From positions 10,632-74,631 of IMG/VR virus record IMGVR_UViG_3300037067_011000: a DNA stretch of 64,000 bases, one strand, 5' to 3'. A program made the translations under genes and the position numbers. Source of the stretch: a virus (Duplodnaviria; Caudoviricetes). Shown here piece after piece: positions 2,059 to 13,667 of the stretch. Each line of letters begins with the position of its first letter. Positions within the stretch are counted from its first letter, which is position 1. The notes below the pieces were generated by a model, which did no database searches, was not told where the DNA came from, and saw only the letters and a program-made list of their open reading frames with translations.

Positions 2059-2339
2059 AATGGATTCTTTACATTACAATTATTTCCTTTATTGGGTTTG
2101 TCTTTTCACTTGTAAAAGCAAGAAAGGATGCCCAAAAGGAACCTGAAAATGGAACAACTATTGTTTATCCTGATGAAGAAATGTTTCAGGAAAATGATAT
2201 TGATGAGTTTTCACCTGATAGTATGATTTCCGATCAGACTATAAAAGATGTTTCTTTAAAGTACAAACTTAAAAAAATTGAGGAAGAAGAAACAAAAATT
2301 GACTCTTTTGATTTTGATAATCGTGAAGATGGAAAGTAG
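2055..2339 (+). CDS. membrane-anchored acidic hypothetical protein
   Basis: N-terminal hydrophobic helix followed by an acidic tail. Confidence 0.6.
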   Translation: MKWILYITIISFIGFVFSLVKARKDAQKEPENGTTIVYPDEEMFQENDIDEFSPDSMISDQTIKDVSLKYKLKKIEEEETKIDSFDFDNREDGK

Positions 2340-2386
2340 AATAGGTGGTGGGTTGAGAAGGGTGAAAGAAGAAATATTGGAAAATG

Positions 2387-2418
2387 TTTGTTTATTAAAT
2401 TTATTAGTTGTTACTTTG
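2387..2418 (+). promoter_or_regulatory. putative Bacteroidota-type promoter (TTTG-N20-TTACTTTG)
   Basis: -33 TTTG at 2387-2390; -7 box TTACTTTG at 2411-2418, one mismatch to TAnnTTTG. Confidence 0.5.
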
Positions 2419-2434
2419 TAGGGGTATTTAAAAA

Positions 2435-2570
2435 CCAGAGCGAATATGAGATTGCAAATTAACGTCTTTTTATATACTGCCTTCACAGGCATAGATTATC
2501 CACAAAGGTTGTACAGGTCGCTCTGGATTCCCAAGTGGATTTTTTATTAACCTGTGAGGGCTTTTATTTT
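2435..2570 (+). promoter_or_regulatory. attenuator-like leader 1 (crossing helices A/A' and B/B' plus U-tract)
   Basis: CCAGAGCGA 2435-2443 pairs with TCGCTCTGG 2518-2526; GCCTTCACAGG 2479-2489 pairs with CCTGTGAGGGC 2551-2561 (one G-U); followed by TTTTATTTT. Confidence 0.6.
2446..2550 (+). CDS. putative leader peptide 1 (34 aa)
   Basis: MRLQINVFLYTAFTGIDYPQRLYRSLWIPKWIFY*; starts 2 nt after helix arm A and stops immediately before arm B'. Confidence 0.45.
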   Translation: MRLQINVFLYTAFTGIDYPQRLYRSLWIPKWIFY

Positions 2571-3212
2571 ATAGATATGGAAAATGAAGGGTTTTTTATT
2601 ATGTCAAAAGAGATGAGGATTGAATTAGAAAATTCTAAAAATAATTACATTACTTCATTAAATAAAAAATACAGTTCAATGGGGTATACAAAAATTAAAT
2701 CATCACATTTTGAAAAAGTTTGGAAGATGTGTCCTTTTGAACTTTCTAAATATGATAACAAAGAAAAAGCTCAAAAAGCATGGGATATATTGTGTGTTGA
2801 AAATATTACACCAACATTAGAAGTAATAGAGGCTCTTTTAAATGAAGTTAAATATCTTATTCAAACCAAAATAGAACTTGCAGAATTGCATTTTAGTGCA
2901 ATTATTGATAATACATCTCTTATTGAGCACATAACAACAAGATATTTAATATGTAAATTAAACAATAAAAATGCTTTTCTTACTTATAAAGAACAGTTAC
3001 AACATCCTTTGTGGCAAAAGAAAAGATTAGAAATAATGCAAAGGGATAATTTTAGTTGTAGACAATGTGGGGATAACCAAAATGTTTTAAATGTGCACCA
3101 TAAAAAATATATTTCAGGAAATAAACCTTGGGAATATCCTGATGAGGATTTAATAACTCTTTGTGAAACCTGCCATTCTAATCTTGAACTTAATAAAAAA
3201 AAGAATGGCTAA
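2535..3212 (+). CDS. HNH endonuclease domain protein
   Basis: C-terminal LQHPLWQKKRLEIMQRDNFSCRQC...VHH...LCETCH; true start may be the ATG at 2577 or 2601. Confidence 0.75.
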   Translation: MDFLLTCEGFYFIDMENEGFFIMSKEMRIELENSKNNYITSLNKKYSSMGYTKIKSSHFEKVWKMCPFELSKYDNKEKAQKAWDILCVENITPTLEVIEALLNEVKYLIQTKIELAELHFSAIIDNTSLIEHITTRYLICKLNNKNAFLTYKEQLQHPLWQKKRLEIMQRDNFSCRQCGDNQNVLNVHHKKYISGNKPWEYPDEDLITLCETCHSNLELNKKKNG

Positions 3213-3999
3213 AGATCCTGCATTTTTATTCTATACAAATGACTTCTATACAGGTACTATTTTCATGTCAGATGAACAGGTAGGAATGTATGTTCGTTTA
3301 CTCTGTTTACAACATCAAAAAGGACATTTAGAAGAAAAACATATGTTAAACATATGTAAAACATATGATAAAGATGTGTTTTCTAAGTTCATTCAGGATA
3401 ATGAAGGAAAGTATTTTAATGAACGTCTTGAAATAGAAATAGATAAACGTAATAAATATTGTGAAAATAGAGGAAAAAACAGGAAAAAGAAAAAATCATA
3501 TGATACAACATATGAAAATCATAGTGAAGATGAAGATATAGATAATTTTTTAAAGGGGGTACAGGGGGAAGAAACCTCCCAAGAAAAAAACGGTTTTATA
3601 ACACCAAAATTGTTTGAAGACTTCTGGGAACTATACCCAAAGAAAACAGATAAAGGAAAGGCTCTTTCAAAATGGAATCAAATTTGTTCAAGAAAAGAAA
3701 ATCGTCCTGTGTGGAAAGAATTAAGAAAAGCTATACATGATCAAAAAAAATCAGATCGTTGGCAGAACAAAAAATTTATACCTGTACCAACAACTTGGTT
3801 AAATCAAAGTCGGTGGTTAGATGATCCAAAAGAAATGGTATCTTATAATTTTGATGAAGATAAGCAAACTTTTTCATGTCCTGAAAATTGGGTTTTTGGT
3901 GTAGATTATGCAGAAGGTAAACAGGGTTGTAGAGATTGTGAAGAATTTCATTCAAATATTTGTAATGCTTGTATAAGTAAATTTCAACTTAAAAAATAA
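3205..3999 (+). CDS. phage replication initiator (lambda O-like; DUF1376-like N-terminus)
   Basis: MAKDPAFLFYTNDF..GT..MS.EQVG.Y.RLLC N-terminus; FEDFWELYPKK...TWLNQSRWLD C-terminal domain; lies upstream of the helicase. Confidence 0.75.
   Translation: MAKDPAFLFYTNDFYTGTIFMSDEQVGMYVRLLCLQHQKGHLEEKHMLNICKTYDKDVFSKFIQDNEGKYFNERLEIEIDKRNKYCENRGKNRKKKKSYDTTYENHSEDEDIDNFLKGVQGEETSQEKNGFITPKLFEDFWELYPKKTDKGKALSKWNQICSRKENRPVWKELRKAIHDQKKSDRWQNKKFIPVPTTWLNQSRWLDDPKEMVSYNFDEDKQTFSCPENWVFGVDYAEGKQGCRDCEEFHSNICNACISKFQLKK
3337..3526. repeat. iteron-like CATATG repeats (candidate origin)
   Basis: AAACATATG x3 at 3337, 3348, 3359 (11-bp period); CATATG at 3497 and 3509; degenerate CATAGTG at 3520. Confidence 0.55.
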
Positions 4000-7760: not shown

Positions 7761-7907
7761 ATGGAACAAATATTATACATGATTCAAGAAATAGAAAATA
7801 TGGAGGATTTTATTAAAATATCTTCCATAGATTTTAAAATAGATAAACAAGTAACTAATGAATTGTTGAGATTATTACAAAATATAAAAGAAATTGGTTT
7901 AAAATGA
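7761..7907 (+). CDS. small hypothetical protein (48 aa)
   Basis: Manually translated; ATGA overlap with the methylase start. Confidence 0.5.
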   Translation: MEQILYMIQEIENMEDFIKISSIDFKIDKQVTNELLRLLQNIKEIGLK

Positions 7908-8542
7908 GAGTACTAAACCTTTATAGTGGCTTAGGGGGGAATAGAAAACTTTGGGAAAGTGTTGAAGTAACTGCTATTGAAAACAATCCTGAAATAGCTA
8001 AATTCTACCAAGAACACTTTCCCAAAGATATAATGATAATTACAGATGCTCATGATTATCTACTAAATCATTATTTTGAATATGACTTTATTTGGAGTTC
8101 TATAAATTGTCCTTCACATAGTCGTGCCAGGTTTTGGGGGAGTAAACCAAATGGAAAAATAAAACCGGTATTTCCAGATATGAAACTTTATGAGGAAATT
8201 ATATTTTTAGAACACTATTTTGAAGGTTTGTGGGTAGTGGAAAATGTTGTACCATATTACACACCTTTAATTGTACCTTCTGTAAAACTTGGGAGACATT
8301 TATTCTGGTCTAATTACACTATCCAACAACAAAAATTTGAGGATGCAGATATAAATAGAGGGAATAAAGAAGAATGGCAGAATTTACATGGTTTTGATAT
8401 AACAGGATATAAATTTACTTCCAGAAGGGATAAGATACTTCGTAATTGTGTAAATCCTCAACTTGGGTTGCATATTTTAAATTGTGCTTTAGGTAAACAA
8501 ACAGAAATTTTAAATCGTCCAGAAACATTTTTTAATTTATAA
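7904..8542 (+). CDS. DNA cytosine-5 methyltransferase (short phage type)
   Basis: Motif I LNLYSGLGG; motif IV WSSINC (normally SPPC); motif VI VENV. Confidence 0.8.
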   Translation: MRVLNLYSGLGGNRKLWESVEVTAIENNPEIAKFYQEHFPKDIMIITDAHDYLLNHYFEYDFIWSSINCPSHSRARFWGSKPNGKIKPVFPDMKLYEEIIFLEHYFEGLWVVENVVPYYTPLIVPSVKLGRHLFWSNYTIQQQKFEDADINRGNKEEWQNLHGFDITGYKFTSRRDKILRNCVNPQLGLHILNCALGKQTEILNRPETFFNL

Positions 8543-8544
8543 CT

Positions 8545-9564
8545 ATGAAAATTAACAAAACAGACTTACAAAATGCTTTGGAGAGGGTTAAGCCAGGGTT
8601 GAGTAGTAAAGAAACTATTCAACAAAGTACCTCCTTCTGTTTTTTAGAAGGAAATGTAGTAACGTATAATGACGAAATATCAATCGCTTCGCCTGTGGAA
8701 AATCTGAATATTACAGGTGCAGTACAAGCCACTGAACTCTATCAACTGCTCAAAAAGCTAAAGCAAGAGGAAATTTCTCTTGAAGTCAGCGAAAATGAGA
8801 TACTGATAACTTCAGGAAAGACAAAAGCAGGTCTTATACTTCAAACGGAGATAAAGTTACCACTTTCCGAAGTGGAAAGGAAATCCGAGTGGAAAATCCT
8901 TCCAGAAGGATTTAAAGAGGCCTTACGCTTCGTTGTAAGTTCCTGTTCAAAGGATATGTCCAAACCTGTCCTTACCTGTGTCCACATTAATGCTGTGGGG
9001 TTTATAGAGGGTTGTGACAATTACAGGGTGGCACGTTGGATGTTAGAAGGGGAATTTCCGACAGGAACATTTTTGATACCTCAAAGTAGTGTCTTGGAAC
9101 TTCTGAAACTTGAACCTGTTAAGGTAGCACTTGATGGTGGGTGGGTACACTTTATAACAGAGGACAAAACCATGATGAGTTGCAGGGTGATTGACGATAA
9201 ATTTCCAGACACAAGTAAACTACTGAACCAAAGTGGAAATGAAGTAAGTTTGCCTGATGGAATTACAGAAGTGCTCGATAGAGCAGGGATTTTTGCGAAA
9301 AGGGACAGTCAGTTAGACGAGGATATTTCGATTATATTGGACAAGGGAAAAGTCAGGGTTGAAAGCAAAAGCGAAACAGGGTGGTTCAAGGAGGAGGTCC
9401 CCAATGAAATTTATAAAGGTGAGGAGGTTCAGTTTGATATTACTCCAAGTTTGCTGAAAGACATTCTGAAAGAAACTAATGTTTTCAGTCATTGTGGTAG
9501 GATGTTGAAGTTTGAAAGTGGAAATTGGAAATATGTTGTTAGTTTAAGAGGTGGAAAACAATGA
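8545..9564 (+). CDS. dnaN: DNA sliding clamp (beta-clamp-like)
   Basis: 339 aa; INKTDLQNALERV start; SKDMSKPVLTCVHI...GCDNYRVA; CRVIDDKFPD motifs typical of DnaN. Confidence 0.75.
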   Translation: MKINKTDLQNALERVKPGLSSKETIQQSTSFCFLEGNVVTYNDEISIASPVENLNITGAVQATELYQLLKKLKQEEISLEVSENEILITSGKTKAGLILQTEIKLPLSEVERKSEWKILPEGFKEALRFVVSSCSKDMSKPVLTCVHINAVGFIEGCDNYRVARWMLEGEFPTGTFLIPQSSVLELLKLEPVKVALDGGWVHFITEDKTMMSCRVIDDKFPDTSKLLNQSGNEVSLPDGITEVLDRAGIFAKRDSQLDEDISIILDKGKVRVESKSETGWFKEEVPNEIYKGEEVQFDITPSLLKDILKETNVFSHCGRMLKFESGNWKYVVSLRGGKQ

Positions 9565-10181
9565 CACAGGAAGGGATCTTCTCAAAGACAGAGGTGCAAT
9601 CTATCAACAGACCTGGTGGTAAAACATTGAGTTGCCATTCTTGCGGATTATATCAAAATTGTAACTCTCCTTGGATGAAAGTGCAGGGCACCGGCAAGAA
9701 GCATATTCTCAACGTGTTTGAGTACCCCCCCTTTGAGGATGATAAAGCAGGAAGAATGTTTCAGAGTAAATCAGGCAGGCTTGTAACCAAAACTTTGAAA
9801 TCCTTGGGTGTAGATATACTTGGGGACTGTTACAATATCCATGCTCTTTCTTGTTTTCCTGATAACAAATATACGGCACATAGTGTTGATTGCTGCCGAA
9901 AATTTGTATTGAAAGCAATACAGGAACATCAACCTAAAGTGGTGTTACTATTTGGTAACTTACCTTTACAGACGGTGATTGGACAAAGGTGGAAAAGGGA
10001 TTTAGGAGGGATTAACAAGTGGAGAGGTTGGACGATTCCCGACCAGAATTTCCAGTGTTGGATTTGCCCTGTGTTTAGTCCTGAATATGTGGAAAGGAGT
10101 TTTGGGGAGTTTGACAAGATTACCGCAGAGAATACAGTTTGGGTAAATGATTTGAAACAGATAATAAATTTAGTGGTATGA
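9561..10181 (+). CDS. family-4 uracil-DNA-glycosylase-like domain (N-terminal piece of split PolA)
   Basis: CxxC..C, SCFP and DCCR Fe-S ligands; QPKVVLLFG motif; catalytic motifs degenerate. Confidence 0.75.
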   Translation: MTQEGIFSKTEVQSINRPGGKTLSCHSCGLYQNCNSPWMKVQGTGKKHILNVFEYPPFEDDKAGRMFQSKSGRLVTKTLKSLGVDILGDCYNIHALSCFPDNKYTAHSVDCCRKFVLKAIQEHQPKVVLLFGNLPLQTVIGQRWKRDLGGINKWRGWTIPDQNFQCWICPVFSPEYVERSFGEFDKITAENTVWVNDLKQIINLVV

Positions 10182-12736
10182 TAAAACTTCTTCTTGGTGA
10201 TAGTGCAGACATTTTAAAGACTTTGGAAGATAATTCTGTTGATTCTGTTGTAAGCGATCCCCCAGCGGGCATCGCCTTCATGGGGCGTTCGTGGGATTCA
10301 GATAAAGGTGGTAGAGATTTATGGATAAAATGGCTTAGTGGTATTTTTGTTGAAGTAAAAAGAGTTTTAAAGCCTGGAGGTCATTGTTTAGTTTGGGCAT
10401 TGCCCAGAACCTCACATTGGACAGGAGTGGCATTGGAAGATGTGGGGTTTGAGGTGAGGGATTGTGTGTATCATGTTTTCGGGTGTTTGTCGGAAGATAC
10501 AGAAATATTAACAATTAATGGGTGGGAACATTACCATAAAAATATTTGTTTATATCCCGTATTGTGTTACCTTTGTGAAGAAAATAGATTTGAATTTCAC
10601 AAACCAACAAAAAAATACTTCTATGAAAACAAATATCCCGCTTACAGAATACAATCAGATCATACAGATCAAATCGTCTCCAGAAATCATCGTGTCCTTG
10701 TTGAACGAAGCGGAAGAAAGGAATTTGTTTTTGCCGAAACATTGGAACAGCAAGAGAACATACCCTTTTTGGAAAGTCTGTCAGATTTGCCAGAAACCCT
10801 TTCCAACATACACGAAGGAAAAAGCATTACGAAACAAGACTTGTTCTATCGTATGCAGAGGCATACAAATATCCAAAGCAAAAAAAGGAGTTTCTCATGG
10901 AAGAACAGCACCTTGGATAAAAGAACCTTGTGCACATTGTGGAAAAATAGTGGAAATGAGGAAGAAACAACGCAAGTACAGCAAAAAGGTATATTGCAGT
11001 TATTCTTGTCGTGCAAAAGAACACTCCAAACACTTACTTCTTTTTTGTTCAAATGGCAAAGGGAAGAAAAATCCCAAAAAGGGCATGAAATTAGAGAAAA
11101 ATCCTGCATGGAAAGGTGGTGTAACATATTTCAAAACACATGGGAATTATGTTGGGGTAAAATATGTCAGATGTCCAATAGAGTATTTATCTATGGCACG
11201 AAAAGATGGGTATGTTATGGAACACCGTCTTATTGTAGCCATGCAGCTTCAACGTCCTTTACTTCGGACGGAAACAGTTCATCACATAGATCACAACCCA
11301 ACGAACAACGATCCTTTAAATCTGATGTTATTCAAAACAAATCAGGAACACAAACTGTACGAGGGACAACAGCGACAGTTACAGAAATAGAATATAAAGG
11401 AAATGTGTGGTGTGTAGAAGTTCCCACAGGAGCTTTTGTTGCTCGAAGAAATGGAAAAATATTTATTACAGGTAATTCTGGCTTTCCGAAAAGTATGAAC
11501 ATTGGGAAAGCTGTGGATGCAATAGGTGGACAATCTTTATCTTGGTTTATAGATTATATTTTAGAAGTTGCTGATGAAAAAGGTATAAGTAGAAAGGAAT
11601 TAACAATGTTATTTCCAAGTAAAAATGGAAATCCTACGGGGTGGTTATGGAATAAACAAAAGACACAAGGGATAACTATTGATCAATTTAATAAAATAAA
11701 AACCTTTTTAAATTTACCATTTGAAAATATAGAAGAAACTAAACGAGAAGTTATAGGAAAAGGAAAAGCAGGTTTAACAGCAGGGAGTATTGCTAACTTT
11801 GCAGGGGAAAAAGAATTTGATTTGACCAAAGGCACTTCTGTATTTGAAGGTTGGGGTACAGCACTTAAACCTGCTGTTGAATGTTGGTGGTTGGTAAGGA
11901 AACCCATAAGTGAAAATACAATAGCAGAAAACGTGTTAAAACATGGTACAGGGGGGTTGAATATTGAAATGTGCAGAATCCCTTTACAAGAAACAGGGGA
12001 AGATTCTCGTTTAGGAGGGAAGGGTACATGGTCAACTGAAAATGCAGGTTGGGTTGTAAGTGGGTCAAAAAGAGAAAGGGTTAGTTCATCAGAAAAAGGC
12101 AGATTTCCAAGTAATCTTATTCATGATGGTTCAGAAGAAGTCCTTTCATATTTCCCAAATGCAGGGGGTCAGCAAGGGGATCTTACAAATCATACAAGGG
12201 TTATAAAATCTCCAAATGGGATTTGTGGAACACAAACCCCACGTTTTGATGCAATAGCAAGAGAAGAAAATGATAAATCAGCAGCAAGATTTTTCTATTG
12301 TTCTAAGCCTTCTCCAAGTGAACGTCAGTTTGGTTGTGGTGAAATAGAAGAAAAGTTTGACAGTCCACGTCCTTGGTGTACAGAAGAAAGTGACAGAGGT
12401 AGAATTGCAACAAGAATGGTTTCCCGTACAGGGAAGAACAACCATCCTACGGTAAAATCCATAAAATTAATGAGTTACCTCTGTAAATTGATCACTCCCA
12501 AAGGCGGGATTATCTTAGATCCTTTCATGGGGAGTGGTAGTACAGGAATTGCTGCAAAAATAAATTCTTTTAGTTTTATTGGAATTGAGAAAGAAGAACC
12601 TTATTTGAAAATTGCAGAAGCAAGAATAAAAGCCCACACAGTTGGAAAAGTAACTGTGCCTAAAGTAAAAAAGGAAAAAGTGTTAAAAGTAGAATCAAGT
12701 AGTGAAACTGTTCAAAATACTTTATTTGAATTATGA
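10178..12736 (+). CDS. N4/N6 DNA methyltransferase (beta class) containing an intein
   Basis: Catalytic DPPA motif near N-terminus; SAM-binding DPFMGSGSTG near C-terminus; HPTVK; FG|SGFPKS restored on intein removal. Confidence 0.9.
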   Translation: MIKLLLGDSADILKTLEDNSVDSVVSDPPAGIAFMGRSWDSDKGGRDLWIKWLSGIFVEVKRVLKPGGHCLVWALPRTSHWTGVALEDVGFEVRDCVYHVFGCLSEDTEILTINGWEHYHKNICLYPVLCYLCEENRFEFHKPTKKYFYENKYPAYRIQSDHTDQIVSRNHRVLVERSGRKEFVFAETLEQQENIPFLESLSDLPETLSNIHEGKSITKQDLFYRMQRHTNIQSKKRSFSWKNSTLDKRTLCTLWKNSGNEEETTQVQQKGILQLFLSCKRTLQTLTSFLFKWQREEKSQKGHEIREKSCMERWCNIFQNTWELCWGKICQMSNRVFIYGTKRWVCYGTPSYCSHAASTSFTSDGNSSSHRSQPNEQRSFKSDVIQNKSGTQTVRGTTATVTEIEYKGNVWCVEVPTGAFVARRNGKIFITGNSGFPKSMNIGKAVDAIGGQSLSWFIDYILEVADEKGISRKELTMLFPSKNGNPTGWLWNKQKTQGITIDQFNKIKTFLNLPFENIEETKREVIGKGKAGLTAGSIANFAGEKEFDLTKGTSVFEGWGTALKPAVECWWLVRKPISENTIAENVLKHGTGGLNIEMCRIPLQETGEDSRLGGKGTWSTENAGWVVSGSKRERVSSSEKGRFPSNLIHDGSEEVLSYFPNAGGQQGDLTNHTRVIKSPNGICGTQTPRFDAIAREENDKSAARFFYCSKPSPSERQFGCGEIEEKFDSPRPWCTEESDRGRIATRMVSRTGKNNHPTVKSIKLMSYLCKLITPKGGIILDPFMGSGSTGIAAKINSFSFIGIEKEEPYLKIAEARIKAHTVGKVTVPKVKKEKVLKVESSSETVQNTLFEL
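10484..11476 (+). mobile_element. intein (331 aa) in DNA methylase
   Basis: Block A CLSEDTEILTINGW; block B IVSRNHRVL; block F VWCVEVPTGAFVARRNG; block G FITGN followed by +1 Ser. Confidence 0.9.
10518..11390 (+). CDS. HNH homing endonuclease nested in the +1 frame of the intein
   Basis: CxxC/CSxxC zinc repeats, NPAWKGG, MEHRLIVA...ETVHHIDHNPTNNDPLNL; start may be 10518 or 10623. Confidence 0.85.
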   Translation: MGGNITIKIFVYIPYCVTFVKKIDLNFTNQQKNTSMKTNIPLTEYNQIIQIKSSPEIIVSLLNEAEERNLFLPKHWNSKRTYPFWKVCQICQKPFPTYTKEKALRNKTCSIVCRGIQISKAKKGVSHGRTAPWIKEPCAHCGKIVEMRKKQRKYSKKVYCSYSCRAKEHSKHLLLFCSNGKGKKNPKKGMKLEKNPAWKGGVTYFKTHGNYVGVKYVRCPIEYLSMARKDGYVMEHRLIVAMQLQRPLLRTETVHHIDHNPTNNDPLNLMLFKTNQEHKLYEGQQRQLQK

Positions 12737-13083
12737 AAATAGTTTACATAGCACACCCTGTTTCGGGAGACATTACAGGAAATCTGAAAAAGATACAAAG
12801 TATCATTCGTCAAATTAATCTTTACTACCCTGACATTTTACCTTTTGCACATTATGTAGTGGATTGTTATTCTTTGGATGATGACAATCCTATTGAAAGA
12901 TTAAGAGGTATAAAAAATGATATAGCTTTGTTAAAAGCAGGTTTCGTAAATGAAATGTGGTTGTATGGAAATAAGATAAGCGAGGGAATGAAAGCTGAAA
13001 TTAAATTAGCAAAAGAACTTGGTATTCTTGTTTGTCCAAAAACAACAGAAACTATGGAAGAATATATAAAATATAATCTATGA
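12733..13083 (+). CDS. DUF4406/DUF7768-like (nucleoside deoxyribosyltransferase-like) protein
   Basis: VYIAHPVSG start; EMWLYG..ISEGMKAEI..A..LGI C-terminus. Confidence 0.7.
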   Translation: MKIVYIAHPVSGDITGNLKKIQSIIRQINLYYPDILPFAHYVVDCYSLDDDNPIERLRGIKNDIALLKAGFVNEMWLYGNKISEGMKAEIKLAKELGILVCPKTTETMEEYIKYNL

Positions 13084-13667
13084 GAGAGTTTCCCATATAC
13101 AAAGAATCTTCCATTGAAGTCATAGAAGACTTAGAAATTCTAAGGACAATAACTGAACCATTTGCATGGGACATAGAAACAAATTCTATTAAAAGCCATT
13201 CACAGGAAAGTAAGATAATATCAGTTGCTATTTGTGATAGTGAAGAAAGGGTTTTTGTTTTTATGATGCCTCAGAAGAGAAGTTTGAGGCTTCCACTTGT
13301 GGAATTATTAACAAACCCCAACATAGGTAAATATGCACACAATTTAAAATTTGAACATTCTTGGGTTGAAAGCAAGTTGGGTATAGTTGTTCGGGGATGG
13401 CAATTGGATACAATGTTAATGTGTCATTGTGAAGATAATCGTTCAGGGATAACTTCATTAAAATTTCAGACATTTGTAAATTTTGGGGTGTTTGATTACA
13501 GTTCGGAAATTGAACCTTATTTAAAAGCAAAGGAAGAAAAAAACGCAAATTCTATAAATCATATTGAAGAATTAATTTCAACAGAATCGGGTAAAGCAAA
13601 ACTATTAAAATATAATGCACTTGATGCTTTTTTTACTTATAAGTTAGCTAAAAAACAAATGTCATGA
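13080..13667 (+). CDS. 3'-5' exonuclease domain (middle piece of split PolA)
   Basis: ExoI WDIET, ExoII HNLKFE, DTML, ExoIII YNALDA. Confidence 0.85.
   Translation: MREFPIYKESSIEVIEDLEILRTITEPFAWDIETNSIKSHSQESKIISVAICDSEERVFVFMMPQKRSLRLPLVELLTNPNIGKYAHNLKFEHSWVESKLGIVVRGWQLDTMLMCHCEDNRSGITSLKFQTFVNFGVFDYSSEIEPYLKAKEEKNANSINHIEELISTESGKAKLLKYNALDAFFTYKLAKKQMS

Follow-up and report, generated by a model that had tools for sequence, protein, structure and literature searches.

An intein in a phage DNA methylase family that encloses a predicted HNH endonuclease in the overlapping +1 frame

Inteins whose endonuclease is read in a frame other than that of the host protein are known from bacteria and phages. 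In the cyanobacterial (Synechocystis) DnaX intein the endonuclease is encoded in a different frame or on the other strand (Gorbalenya 1998, as cited in 10.64898/2026.09.14.751524), and this intein shows a disordered middle and a frame-dependent omega (Phillips et al. 2026, 10.64898/2026.09.14.751524). Actinophage inteins can carry an EndoVII-like endonuclease in frame 3, or an antisense LAGLIDADG or VSR endonuclease (Gosselin et al. 2025, 10.1101/2025.01.02.630785). The same work proposes that free-standing endonucleases invade inteins, and it cites Dassa et al. 2009 for genes in pieces, or fractured genes, caused by free-standing homing endonucleases. Actinophage methylases contain two further insertions with an out-of-frame HNH, the ShiLan domain, which has no splicing domains, and the Pacc40 insertion (Arsenault et al. 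2025, PMC11855218). The N6_N4 methylase intein of mycobacteriophages belongs to the DNMT inteins of Kelley et al. 2016 (PMC5050341), and the endonuclease of the ShiLan gp65 intein is an in-frame LAGLIDADG (Gosselin et al. 2023, PMC9957025). Here we analyse a 64-kb stretch of DNA, called the window in the following, which takes up the greater part of an IMG/VR phage record of 74.6 kb that is rated as complete (IMGVR_UViG_3300037067_011000). Its DNA methylase gene is interrupted by a predicted intein that encloses an HNH nuclease gene in the +1 frame. We consider it highly probable that both together form a composite homing element of two overlapping genes, a spliced intein and an independently started HNH gene.

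The interrupted methylase gene and its closest described relatives

The methylase frame is stop-free from 10151 to 12733, and Pfam detects N6_N4_Mtase in this host frame, split into two stretches (E 3.6e-25). The insertion is 993 nucleotides long (10484-11476, 331 residues), starts with Cys, ends with Gly-Asn and is followed by Ser. With a slash at the junction, the protein reads ...VFG/CLSEDTEIL... and ...FITGN/SGFPKS..., the DNA TTCGGG/TGT and AAT/TCTGGC, which places the insertion point between G and S of the conserved methylase motif YG/SGFPKS. The +1 frame is stop-free from 10512 to 11387, contains ATG codons at 10518 and 10623 and ends with a stop codon at 11388-11390, 89 nucleotides 5' of the intein end. 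The third frame over the insertion is closed. An earlier note on this DNA had read an open methylase frame through a 331-residue intein, and the open reading frame (ORF) and junctions match that reading exactly; it had also named an intact zinc-finger and HNH nuclease nested in the +1 frame, with which the HNH_3 match, the two Cys4 ribbons and the open frame at 10512-11387 agree. The features are as follows; pLDDT stands for predicted local distance difference test, dN/dS for the ratio of nonsynonymous to synonymous substitution.

10178..12736, + strand: DNA methylase precursor ORF, 852 residues, read through the intein (ORF list, Pfam, homology to the ShiLan gp65 methylase)
10178..10483, + strand: N-extein, ending in ...VYHVFG (aligns with the N-exteins of 60 other loci to the same residue)
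10484..11476, + strand: predicted intein, 331 residues, Cys1 ... Gly-Asn / Ser+1 (conserved boundaries, invariant residues, HINT fold, 6zgq profile match)
10484..10798, + strand: N-terminal splicing domain, residues 1-105, block A CLSEDTEIL, block B TDQIVSRNH (pLDDT 85-97)
10623..11390, + strand: HNH gene in the +1 frame, 255 residues plus stop (Pfam HNH_3, conserved ATG, AlphaFold2, I-HmuI match)
10623..10798, + strand: putative dual-coding stretch; the host frame gives the intein block-B region, the +1 frame the HNH N-terminal domain (diversity, dN/dS, two confident models)
10779..11009, + strand: two predicted HNH zinc ribbons, C53/C56...C74/C78 and C103/C106...C125/C129 (invariant cysteines; YacG-like zinc-finger matches)
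10799..11350, + strand: host-frame passenger segment, intein residues ~106-289 (pLDDT, dN/dS, codon-position variability)
11100..11363, + strand: predicted HNH catalytic core, NPAWKGG ... ARKDGYVMEHRL ... VHHIDHNP.NN ... NQEHK (most invariant columns; I-HmuI match)
11351..11476, + strand: C-terminal splicing domain, blocks F and G, VWCVEVPTGAFVARRNGKIFITGN (pLDDT 90-94; ShiLan gp65 identity)
11477..12736, + strand: C-extein, starting with SGFPKS (Ser+1 and GFPK invariant in 61 loci)

The closest described intein is that of the mycobacteriophage methylases. ShiLan gp65 and the DNMT inteins share the host-gene family and the insertion site YG/C...TGN/SGFPKS with the window. Blocks F and G of the ShiLan gp65 intein together with the junction are 76% identical to those of the window intein, and blocks A and B align. 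In contrast to the actinophage intein with its in-frame LAGLIDADG, the endonuclease slot of the window intein makes no sense when read in the host frame, and the +1 frame encodes an HNH there. Given the same site, the homologous ends and the in-frame LAGLIDADG of the published intein, the window intein is by alignment the same allele, but its endonuclease is another one and is read in another frame. In our annotation of ShiLan gp65 (L083:690-3572), the orthologous intein at YG/.../SGFPKS shows LAGLIDADG-like motifs in frame, and the HNH of the ShiLan domain is found in frame +2, about 80 codons downstream of the intein.

The ShiLan domain resembles the window in another respect, as it is a zinc-ribbon HNH out of frame within an open methylase ORF of the same family. 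It differs in lacking splicing domains, in the +2 frame, in having zinc fingers on both sides of the HNH and in its site after GTALKPSYEP...KP, while the window HNH is enclosed by an intein. The earlier note had mentioned an HNH hidden in actinophage methylases within an insertion that is no intein, which is correct (ShiLan domain, PMC11855218). Its view that the intein-nested form is much less described was overrated, since inteins with out-of-frame or opposite-strand endonucleases have been published (10.64898/2026.09.14.751524; 10.1101/2025.01.02.630785). With the DnaX and the actinophage non-canonical inteins the window intein shares splicing domains in the host frame, a disordered middle, a nuclease fold in an overlapping frame and frame-dependent dN/dS. 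It has a nuclease ORF in the other frame, an open host frame and selection on the nuclease frame, as expected for a non-canonical intein. The window intein belongs to a very large family of this already published kind, the non-canonical intein with an overlapping-frame homing endonuclease. Unlike the published examples, it combines an HNH nuclease with a methylase host, and its nested ORF overlaps about 55 codons of the splicing domain. Full-text searches of the literature returned no description of an out-of-frame HNH inside an intein and none of this methylase family outside actinophages.

Selection in two frames, splicing domains and nuclease

A scan of IMG/VR yielded 111 HNH relatives, and our loci set consists of 80 of these and the window (81 loci). 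In 79 of the 81 the HNH lies wholly inside a long open ORF and always in the +1 frame, at HNH identities down to 38%. The exceptions are L056, which runs off the contig end, and L063, in which the HNH is free-standing. The same layout in about 80 independent contigs rejects a frameshift from sequencing or assembly. Class A comprises 61 loci that share the junctions G/C(L)S(E)DTEILT ... ARRNGKxFxTGN/SGFPKS, with insertions of 269-427 residues.

Evidence for dual coding comes from the codon choice of the HNH gene. For a stop to arise in the host frame, an HNH codon with a final T must be followed by one that begins with AA, AG or GA. At such risk contexts in the window none of the 77 preceding codons ends in T, compared with 65 of 177 (37%) elsewhere; for all loci the numbers are 0 of 5078 compared with 24%. 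Synonymous resampling of the HNH protein with the codon usage of the window predicts about 26 host-frame stops, none is observed, and not one of 20,000 resamplings is stop-free. The outcome is unchanged when synonymous codons are permuted within the ORF, and the unused third frame contains 14 stops with 15.9 expected. A double ORF by chance is ruled out by the difference between 26 expected and 0 observed host-frame stops. Judged by these counts, the codon choice in the HNH gene keeps the host frame open through selection.

Codon-position variability switches at the borders of the HNH gene. Across 56 distinct class A sequences aligned by codon, host position 3 is the most variable up to 10768, including the N-extein (10178..10483), and again from 11354; between these borders it is host position 1, which equals HNH position 3. 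This switch in periodicity is independent of the dN/dS ratios. The latter are medians of pairwise Nei-Gojobori estimates (NG86) and rough because many pairs are near synonymous saturation:

N-extein plus non-overlapped intein N-terminus, host frame: 0.24
Intein C-terminus plus C-extein, host frame: 0.17
Middle, host frame: 1.41
Middle, HNH frame: 0.28
Overlap 10622-10790, host frame: 0.42
Overlap 10622-10790, HNH frame: 0.66

Frame-specific dN/dS had been proposed in the earlier note as a check on the +1 frame, and the values for the middle, 0.28 compared with 1.41 in the host frame, indicate purifying selection on the HNH. A function for the host-frame middle is rejected on the basis of this 1.41 and of pLDDT below 50. 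The stretch 10623..10798 behaves differently from the middle. All three codon positions show low diversity (0.27/0.16/0.41 and 0.34/0.26/0.38), dN/dS is intermediate in both frames, and at 10622-10790 the N-terminal domain of the HNH overlaps intein block B with both structure models confident. Low diversity, intermediate ratios and the two models lead us to conclude that about 55 codons (about 170 nucleotides) are predicted to encode folded protein in two frames.

For the intein itself, a profile built from 53 class A insertions matches the solved AceL NrdHF intein 6zgq with E 4.6e-8 and, more weakly, two further inteins. The AlphaFold2 model has pLDDT >90 at residues 1-105 and 290-331, all beta strands, and <50 at residues 136-289 and also at 111-116. 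All top Foldseek matches of this model in the PDB are inteins or hedgehog HINT domains with Foldseek probability 1.00, among them the AceL NrdHF intein (E 5e-5), with which the N-terminal splicing domain has been aligned together with the ShiLan gp65 intein. Residues C1, H69 (block B), C310, T329, G330 and N331 are invariant across the 53 intein sequences, the splicing domains of which are merely 24-54% identical overall, and all 61 class A loci have Ser+1. In penultimate position stands an invariant Gly in place of His; phage (mycobacteriophage) inteins with a penultimate Gly do splice (PMC5050341). The catalytic set of Cys1, block B S-x-x-H, C-terminal Asn and Ser+1 is present. The motif YG/SGFPKS is split by the intein in the 61 loci and uninterrupted in most intein-less loci (L054, L058, L062), where it varies as YG-[S/T/Q]GFPKS. 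By profile, fold and residues the insertion 10484-11476 is a HINT-fold intein, and its splicing is predicted.

Class 3 inteins have no N-terminal nucleophile and carry a WCT triplet of B:12 Trp, F:4 Cys and G:5 Thr. In the window family the Cys at block F:4 (C310) and the Thr at G:5 (T329) are invariant, B:12 is Val or Cys and not Trp, and Cys1 is invariant. Cys F:4, Thr G:5 and the missing penultimate His are class-3-like marks beside this Cys1 (intein residues 66, 69, 310, 329 and 330). The AceL NrdHF intein is a class 3 intein with an MCT triplet, an Ala start, Cys F:4, Thr G:5 and no penultimate His (PMC7891396). As the nearest solved relative of the splicing domain (PDB 6zgq), it shares Ser B:7, Cys F:4, Thr G:5 and the lack of a penultimate His with the window. 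In contrast to the window intein, which is contiguous and has the invariant Cys1, AceL NrdHF starts with Ala and is naturally split. Because AceL-type class 3 marks coexist with an invariant Cys1, the first attack in splicing may come from Cys1 or from Cys310, by a class 1 or a class 3 route.

The +1 product matches HNH_3 with E 1.3e-5 (25.1 bits, cutoff 24.8). A helical domain at the N-terminus is followed by two Cys4 zinc ribbons, and the HNH core forms the C-terminal part. In an alignment of 45 HNH sequences with a mean column identity of 47%, H201, H220, N233 and H243, the ribbon cysteines C53, C56, C125 and C129 and the block NPAWKGG...ARKDGYVMEHRL...VHH...N...HK are invariant. The AlphaFold2 model has a mean pLDDT of 85. 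Exhaustive structural alignment with VIA-align places I-HmuI first with a modest Z of 6.0 (root-mean-square deviation 3.2 A over 75 residues, model residues 164-252); the rows below it include the Cascade chain 8w1p_G, I-PpoI, GVE2 HNH, McrA and Gme HNH. I-HmuI (PDB 1u3e) is thus the best structural match of the C-terminal domain; it differs in having other N-terminal DNA-binding modules and in being encoded by a group I intron and not nested in an intein. By sequence and model, the +1 product is an HNH (beta-beta-alpha-Me) endonuclease for which nuclease activity is predicted.

The earlier note gave 10518 or 10623 as the start of the HNH. In 28 distinct loci an ATG is found at a fixed offset of 139 nucleotides in the intein, which is position 10623 in the window, and the products from this conserved ATG start with M(K/T)T.IP. 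A Shine-Dalgarno-like motif, defined as AGGAG or a 4-nucleotide core such as GAGG or GGAG, precedes it in 15 of the 28 loci, and about 10 of them contain AGGAG. In other subclades the HNH starts lie 40-57 nucleotides further upstream. The likely start is therefore the conserved ATG at 10623, with a product of 255 residues, rather than 10518. The conserved ATG with its upstream motifs and the starts of the other subclades make independent initiation of the HNH much more likely than frameshifting. An internal promoter TAnnTTTG (Bacteroidota -7-like) at 10568-10575 and 10585-10592 (+ strand) was not adopted. Its two copies are located 55 and 38 nucleotides upstream of ATG 10623, and across the window the motif occurs no more often than expected (92 found, 100 expected). 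The copy at -38 recurs in 8 of 28 related loci, which may merely reflect coding constraint.

Genomic contexts and mobility of the nuclease

Among cultured phages the element is essentially absent. A blastn search with the methylase returned a sole match of 146 nucleotides in a cyanophage methylase. Queried by tblastn, the cultured and deposited phages contained a single full-length relative, on the 484-kb uncultured phage LR756508.1, with the same layout of methylase ORF, intein and nested +1 ORF; its nested product is 40% identical. These searches showed no other copy in cultured phage records. By protein search, about 1070 clusters at 90% identity match the intein region, and the best 120 of the 1070 all span the intein end to end, most of them with a methylase Pfam domain. 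HNH relatives amount to 826 clusters (E <= 1e-5). One methylase among them, P0004 (1340 residues), has the same intein at 50% identity and full coverage and carries a second intein detected by Pfam (LAGLIDADG_3 and Intein_splicing).

About 20 loci form class B, which lacks the intein ends (L048, L053-L055, L057, L058, L062, L065-L069, L071, L072, L074, L077, L078, L080, L081). The motif YGSGFPKS or a close variant is mostly uninterrupted here, and the shorter HNH (about 155-260 residues) is nested in the +1 frame shortly after it, in many loci between CxC and CxxC of the methylase. Class B copies are hidden HNH genes of the ShiLan type without splicing domains, which the window copy is not, and by their layout they are ShiLan-like read-through insertions at a third site. 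A class B HNH query finds ShiLan, Mantra, Starcevich and others under methylase genes. The identity of 33-38%, for ShiLan over 83% of the class B member, therefore makes the ShiLan HNH, as judged by alignment, a distant member of the window HNH clade.

A further context is found in L063. Here the HNH is a free-standing gene at 2566-3075 between two half ORFs, the N- and the C-terminal half of the methylase (region 2155-3664). From its gene order this locus is a genes-in-pieces state of the same target gene. It resembles the fractured genes of the literature and fits a free-standing endonuclease that invades a gene or an intein; in contrast, gene and intein of the window are contiguous. In the maximum-likelihood tree of the HNH core, class B takes at least two positions among class A, and one class B and one class A HNH are sisters with support 100/94. 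This scatter of class B indicates that the nuclease gene has moved between contexts.

The intein has a history of its own as well. Splicing-domain identity and N-extein identity, the latter over the last 90 residues, are almost uncorrelated (Spearman 0.16). Pairs with splicing domains more than 70% identical have exteins as low as 31% identical, and for pairs with exteins more than 70% identical the median intein identity is 53%. Some copies have altered HNH ends or frames. In L044 (3001-3759) a stop interrupts the HNH frame, which opens no earlier than 3166, and the copy looks as if it were decaying; L036 (3001-3921) has lost the HNH stop and reads 25 nucleotides beyond the intein end.

In the window, the methylase gene is located in a replication module, with the neighbouring genes judged by eye from their translations. 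A second small methyltransferase-like gene (7904-8542), a sliding-clamp-like gene (8545-9564) and a UDG-like gene (9561-10181) precede it. A small nucleoside deoxyribosyltransferase-like gene (12733-13083) and a 3'-5' exonuclease-like gene (13080-13667) follow.

Weighing of explanations, proposed mechanism and meaning

Several results weigh against a composite element of spliced intein and separately started nuclease. Pfam matched no intein model on the host-frame insertion. Foldseek found no significant match in the PDB for the whole HNH model, because this model consists of several domains on a string, and the score of the I-HmuI match is modest. In the window, no Shine-Dalgarno motif precedes ATG 10623; such motifs are rare there, with 11 of 59 long ORFs. 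The upstream ATG at 10518 is a possible alternative start. The dN/dS ratios are affected by saturation. The HNH and intein trees are unrooted, and the endonuclease swap may have run from LAGLIDADG to HNH or in the reverse direction.

One alternative is that the insertion is not spliced and is kept as a tolerated loop of the methylase, as proposed for the ShiLan domain, with the intein ends as relics. The same HNH clade occurs without an intein in about 20 loci of the same methylase family, so that read-through loops are tolerated nearby, and the penultimate His is missing. Relics would not be expected to keep C1, H69, C310, T329, N331 and Ser+1 invariant at 24-54% splicing-domain identity or to show the low dN/dS of the splicing-domain flanks (0.24 and 0.17). 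The insertion splits a highly conserved motif and not a variable loop, and phage inteins can splice with Gly as the penultimate residue (PMC5050341). We regard an unspliced insertion as improbable. That the nested HNH is a working partner of the methylase, e.g. a restriction-like or exclusion nuclease with methylase-protected targets, would account for an HNH clade tied to one methylase family in four contexts (intein, direct nesting, ShiLan site, split gene). The same pattern is predicted by the target-site specificity of a homing enzyme. The histories of intein and extein are uncoupled, the closest fold is a homing endonuclease, and decaying copies such as L044 with its internal stop are expected in a homing cycle, all of which makes a partner function quite improbable.

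Programmed frameshifting, +1 into and -1 out of the HNH, would join it to the intein and give a conventional in-frame HNH intein protein. The HNH frame is open from 10512, upstream of ATG 10623, and in-frame HNH inteins exist according to a work cited in 10.1101/2025.01.02.630785 (Dalgaard 1997). Frameshifting is disfavoured because the open host frame would stay unexplained: nothing would keep stops out of it over about 255 codons, and still every one of the 79 nested loci has it open. The ATG is conserved with Shine-Dalgarno-like motifs upstream, the HNH frame opens merely 3-12 nucleotides before it in several loci (L013, L023, L037), and two precise shifts would be required. This explanation has hardly any probability left. 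The composite selfish element proposed in the earlier note is supported by frame-specific selection, the open host frame and the invariant splicing residues. The conserved internal ATG, the Shine-Dalgarno-like motifs in 15 of 28 loci and the uncoupled similarity of intein and extein point the same way.

For this composite element we propose the following mechanism. Host-frame translation of the methylase mRNA would run on across the 993-nucleotide insertion, from which synonymous-codon selection on the nested gene would have removed all host-frame stops. The precursor would contain a HINT-fold intein with a meaningless, disordered middle of about 180 residues. Protein splicing would excise the insertion, rejoin ...YG to SGFPKS... 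and restore the methylase. Independently, +1-frame translation would begin at the internal ATG 10623 and yield the I-HmuI-like HNH protein of 255 residues. In co-infecting relatives this nuclease would cleave methylase alleles without the intein, close to the GSGFPK-coding site, and repair from the intein-bearing copy would spread the element. Because the intein is the same allele as the LAGLIDADG-bearing mycobacteriophage methylase intein, the most parsimonious history is that the endonuclease slot of a pre-existing intein was taken by a free-standing HNH gene with an earlier specialisation on the methylase. A wider reading, to which we assign an even chance, is that the HNH gene is an autonomous mobile unit specialised on one methylase gene that survives insertion by three interchangeable routes. 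It would hide in an existing intein, where it displaces or replaces the LAGLIDADG, it would be read through unspliced and out of frame, or it would split the gene in two.

The methylase/HNH family is very large and mostly unannotated. Predicted homing endonucleases in overlapping frames inside inteins are common in environmental phages and are not an actinophage curiosity, and gene-calling programs will overlook the nuclease or wrongly label the intein as decaying. The family joins the actinophage methylase intein, the hidden ShiLan HNH and the non-canonical inteins into one system. It offers the states for testing how endonucleases are acquired and exchanged: LAGLIDADG in frame, HNH out of frame, HNH without intein and HNH in a split gene. 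Added interest comes from the dual-coding overlap with the splicing domain, from the swapped endonuclease relative to a published ortholog and from one nuclease in intein, read-through and split-gene contexts. The stretch of about 170 nucleotides predicted to be folded in two frames is a compact case for the study of dual-coding constraint, and the mixed class 1 and class 3 residues make the intein a candidate for mechanistic work and protein engineering. If the HNH gene is indeed such an autonomous unit, the family would be a natural series that documents a free-standing endonuclease capturing an intein, including a stretch in which nuclease and splicing domain are both folded in overlapping frames.

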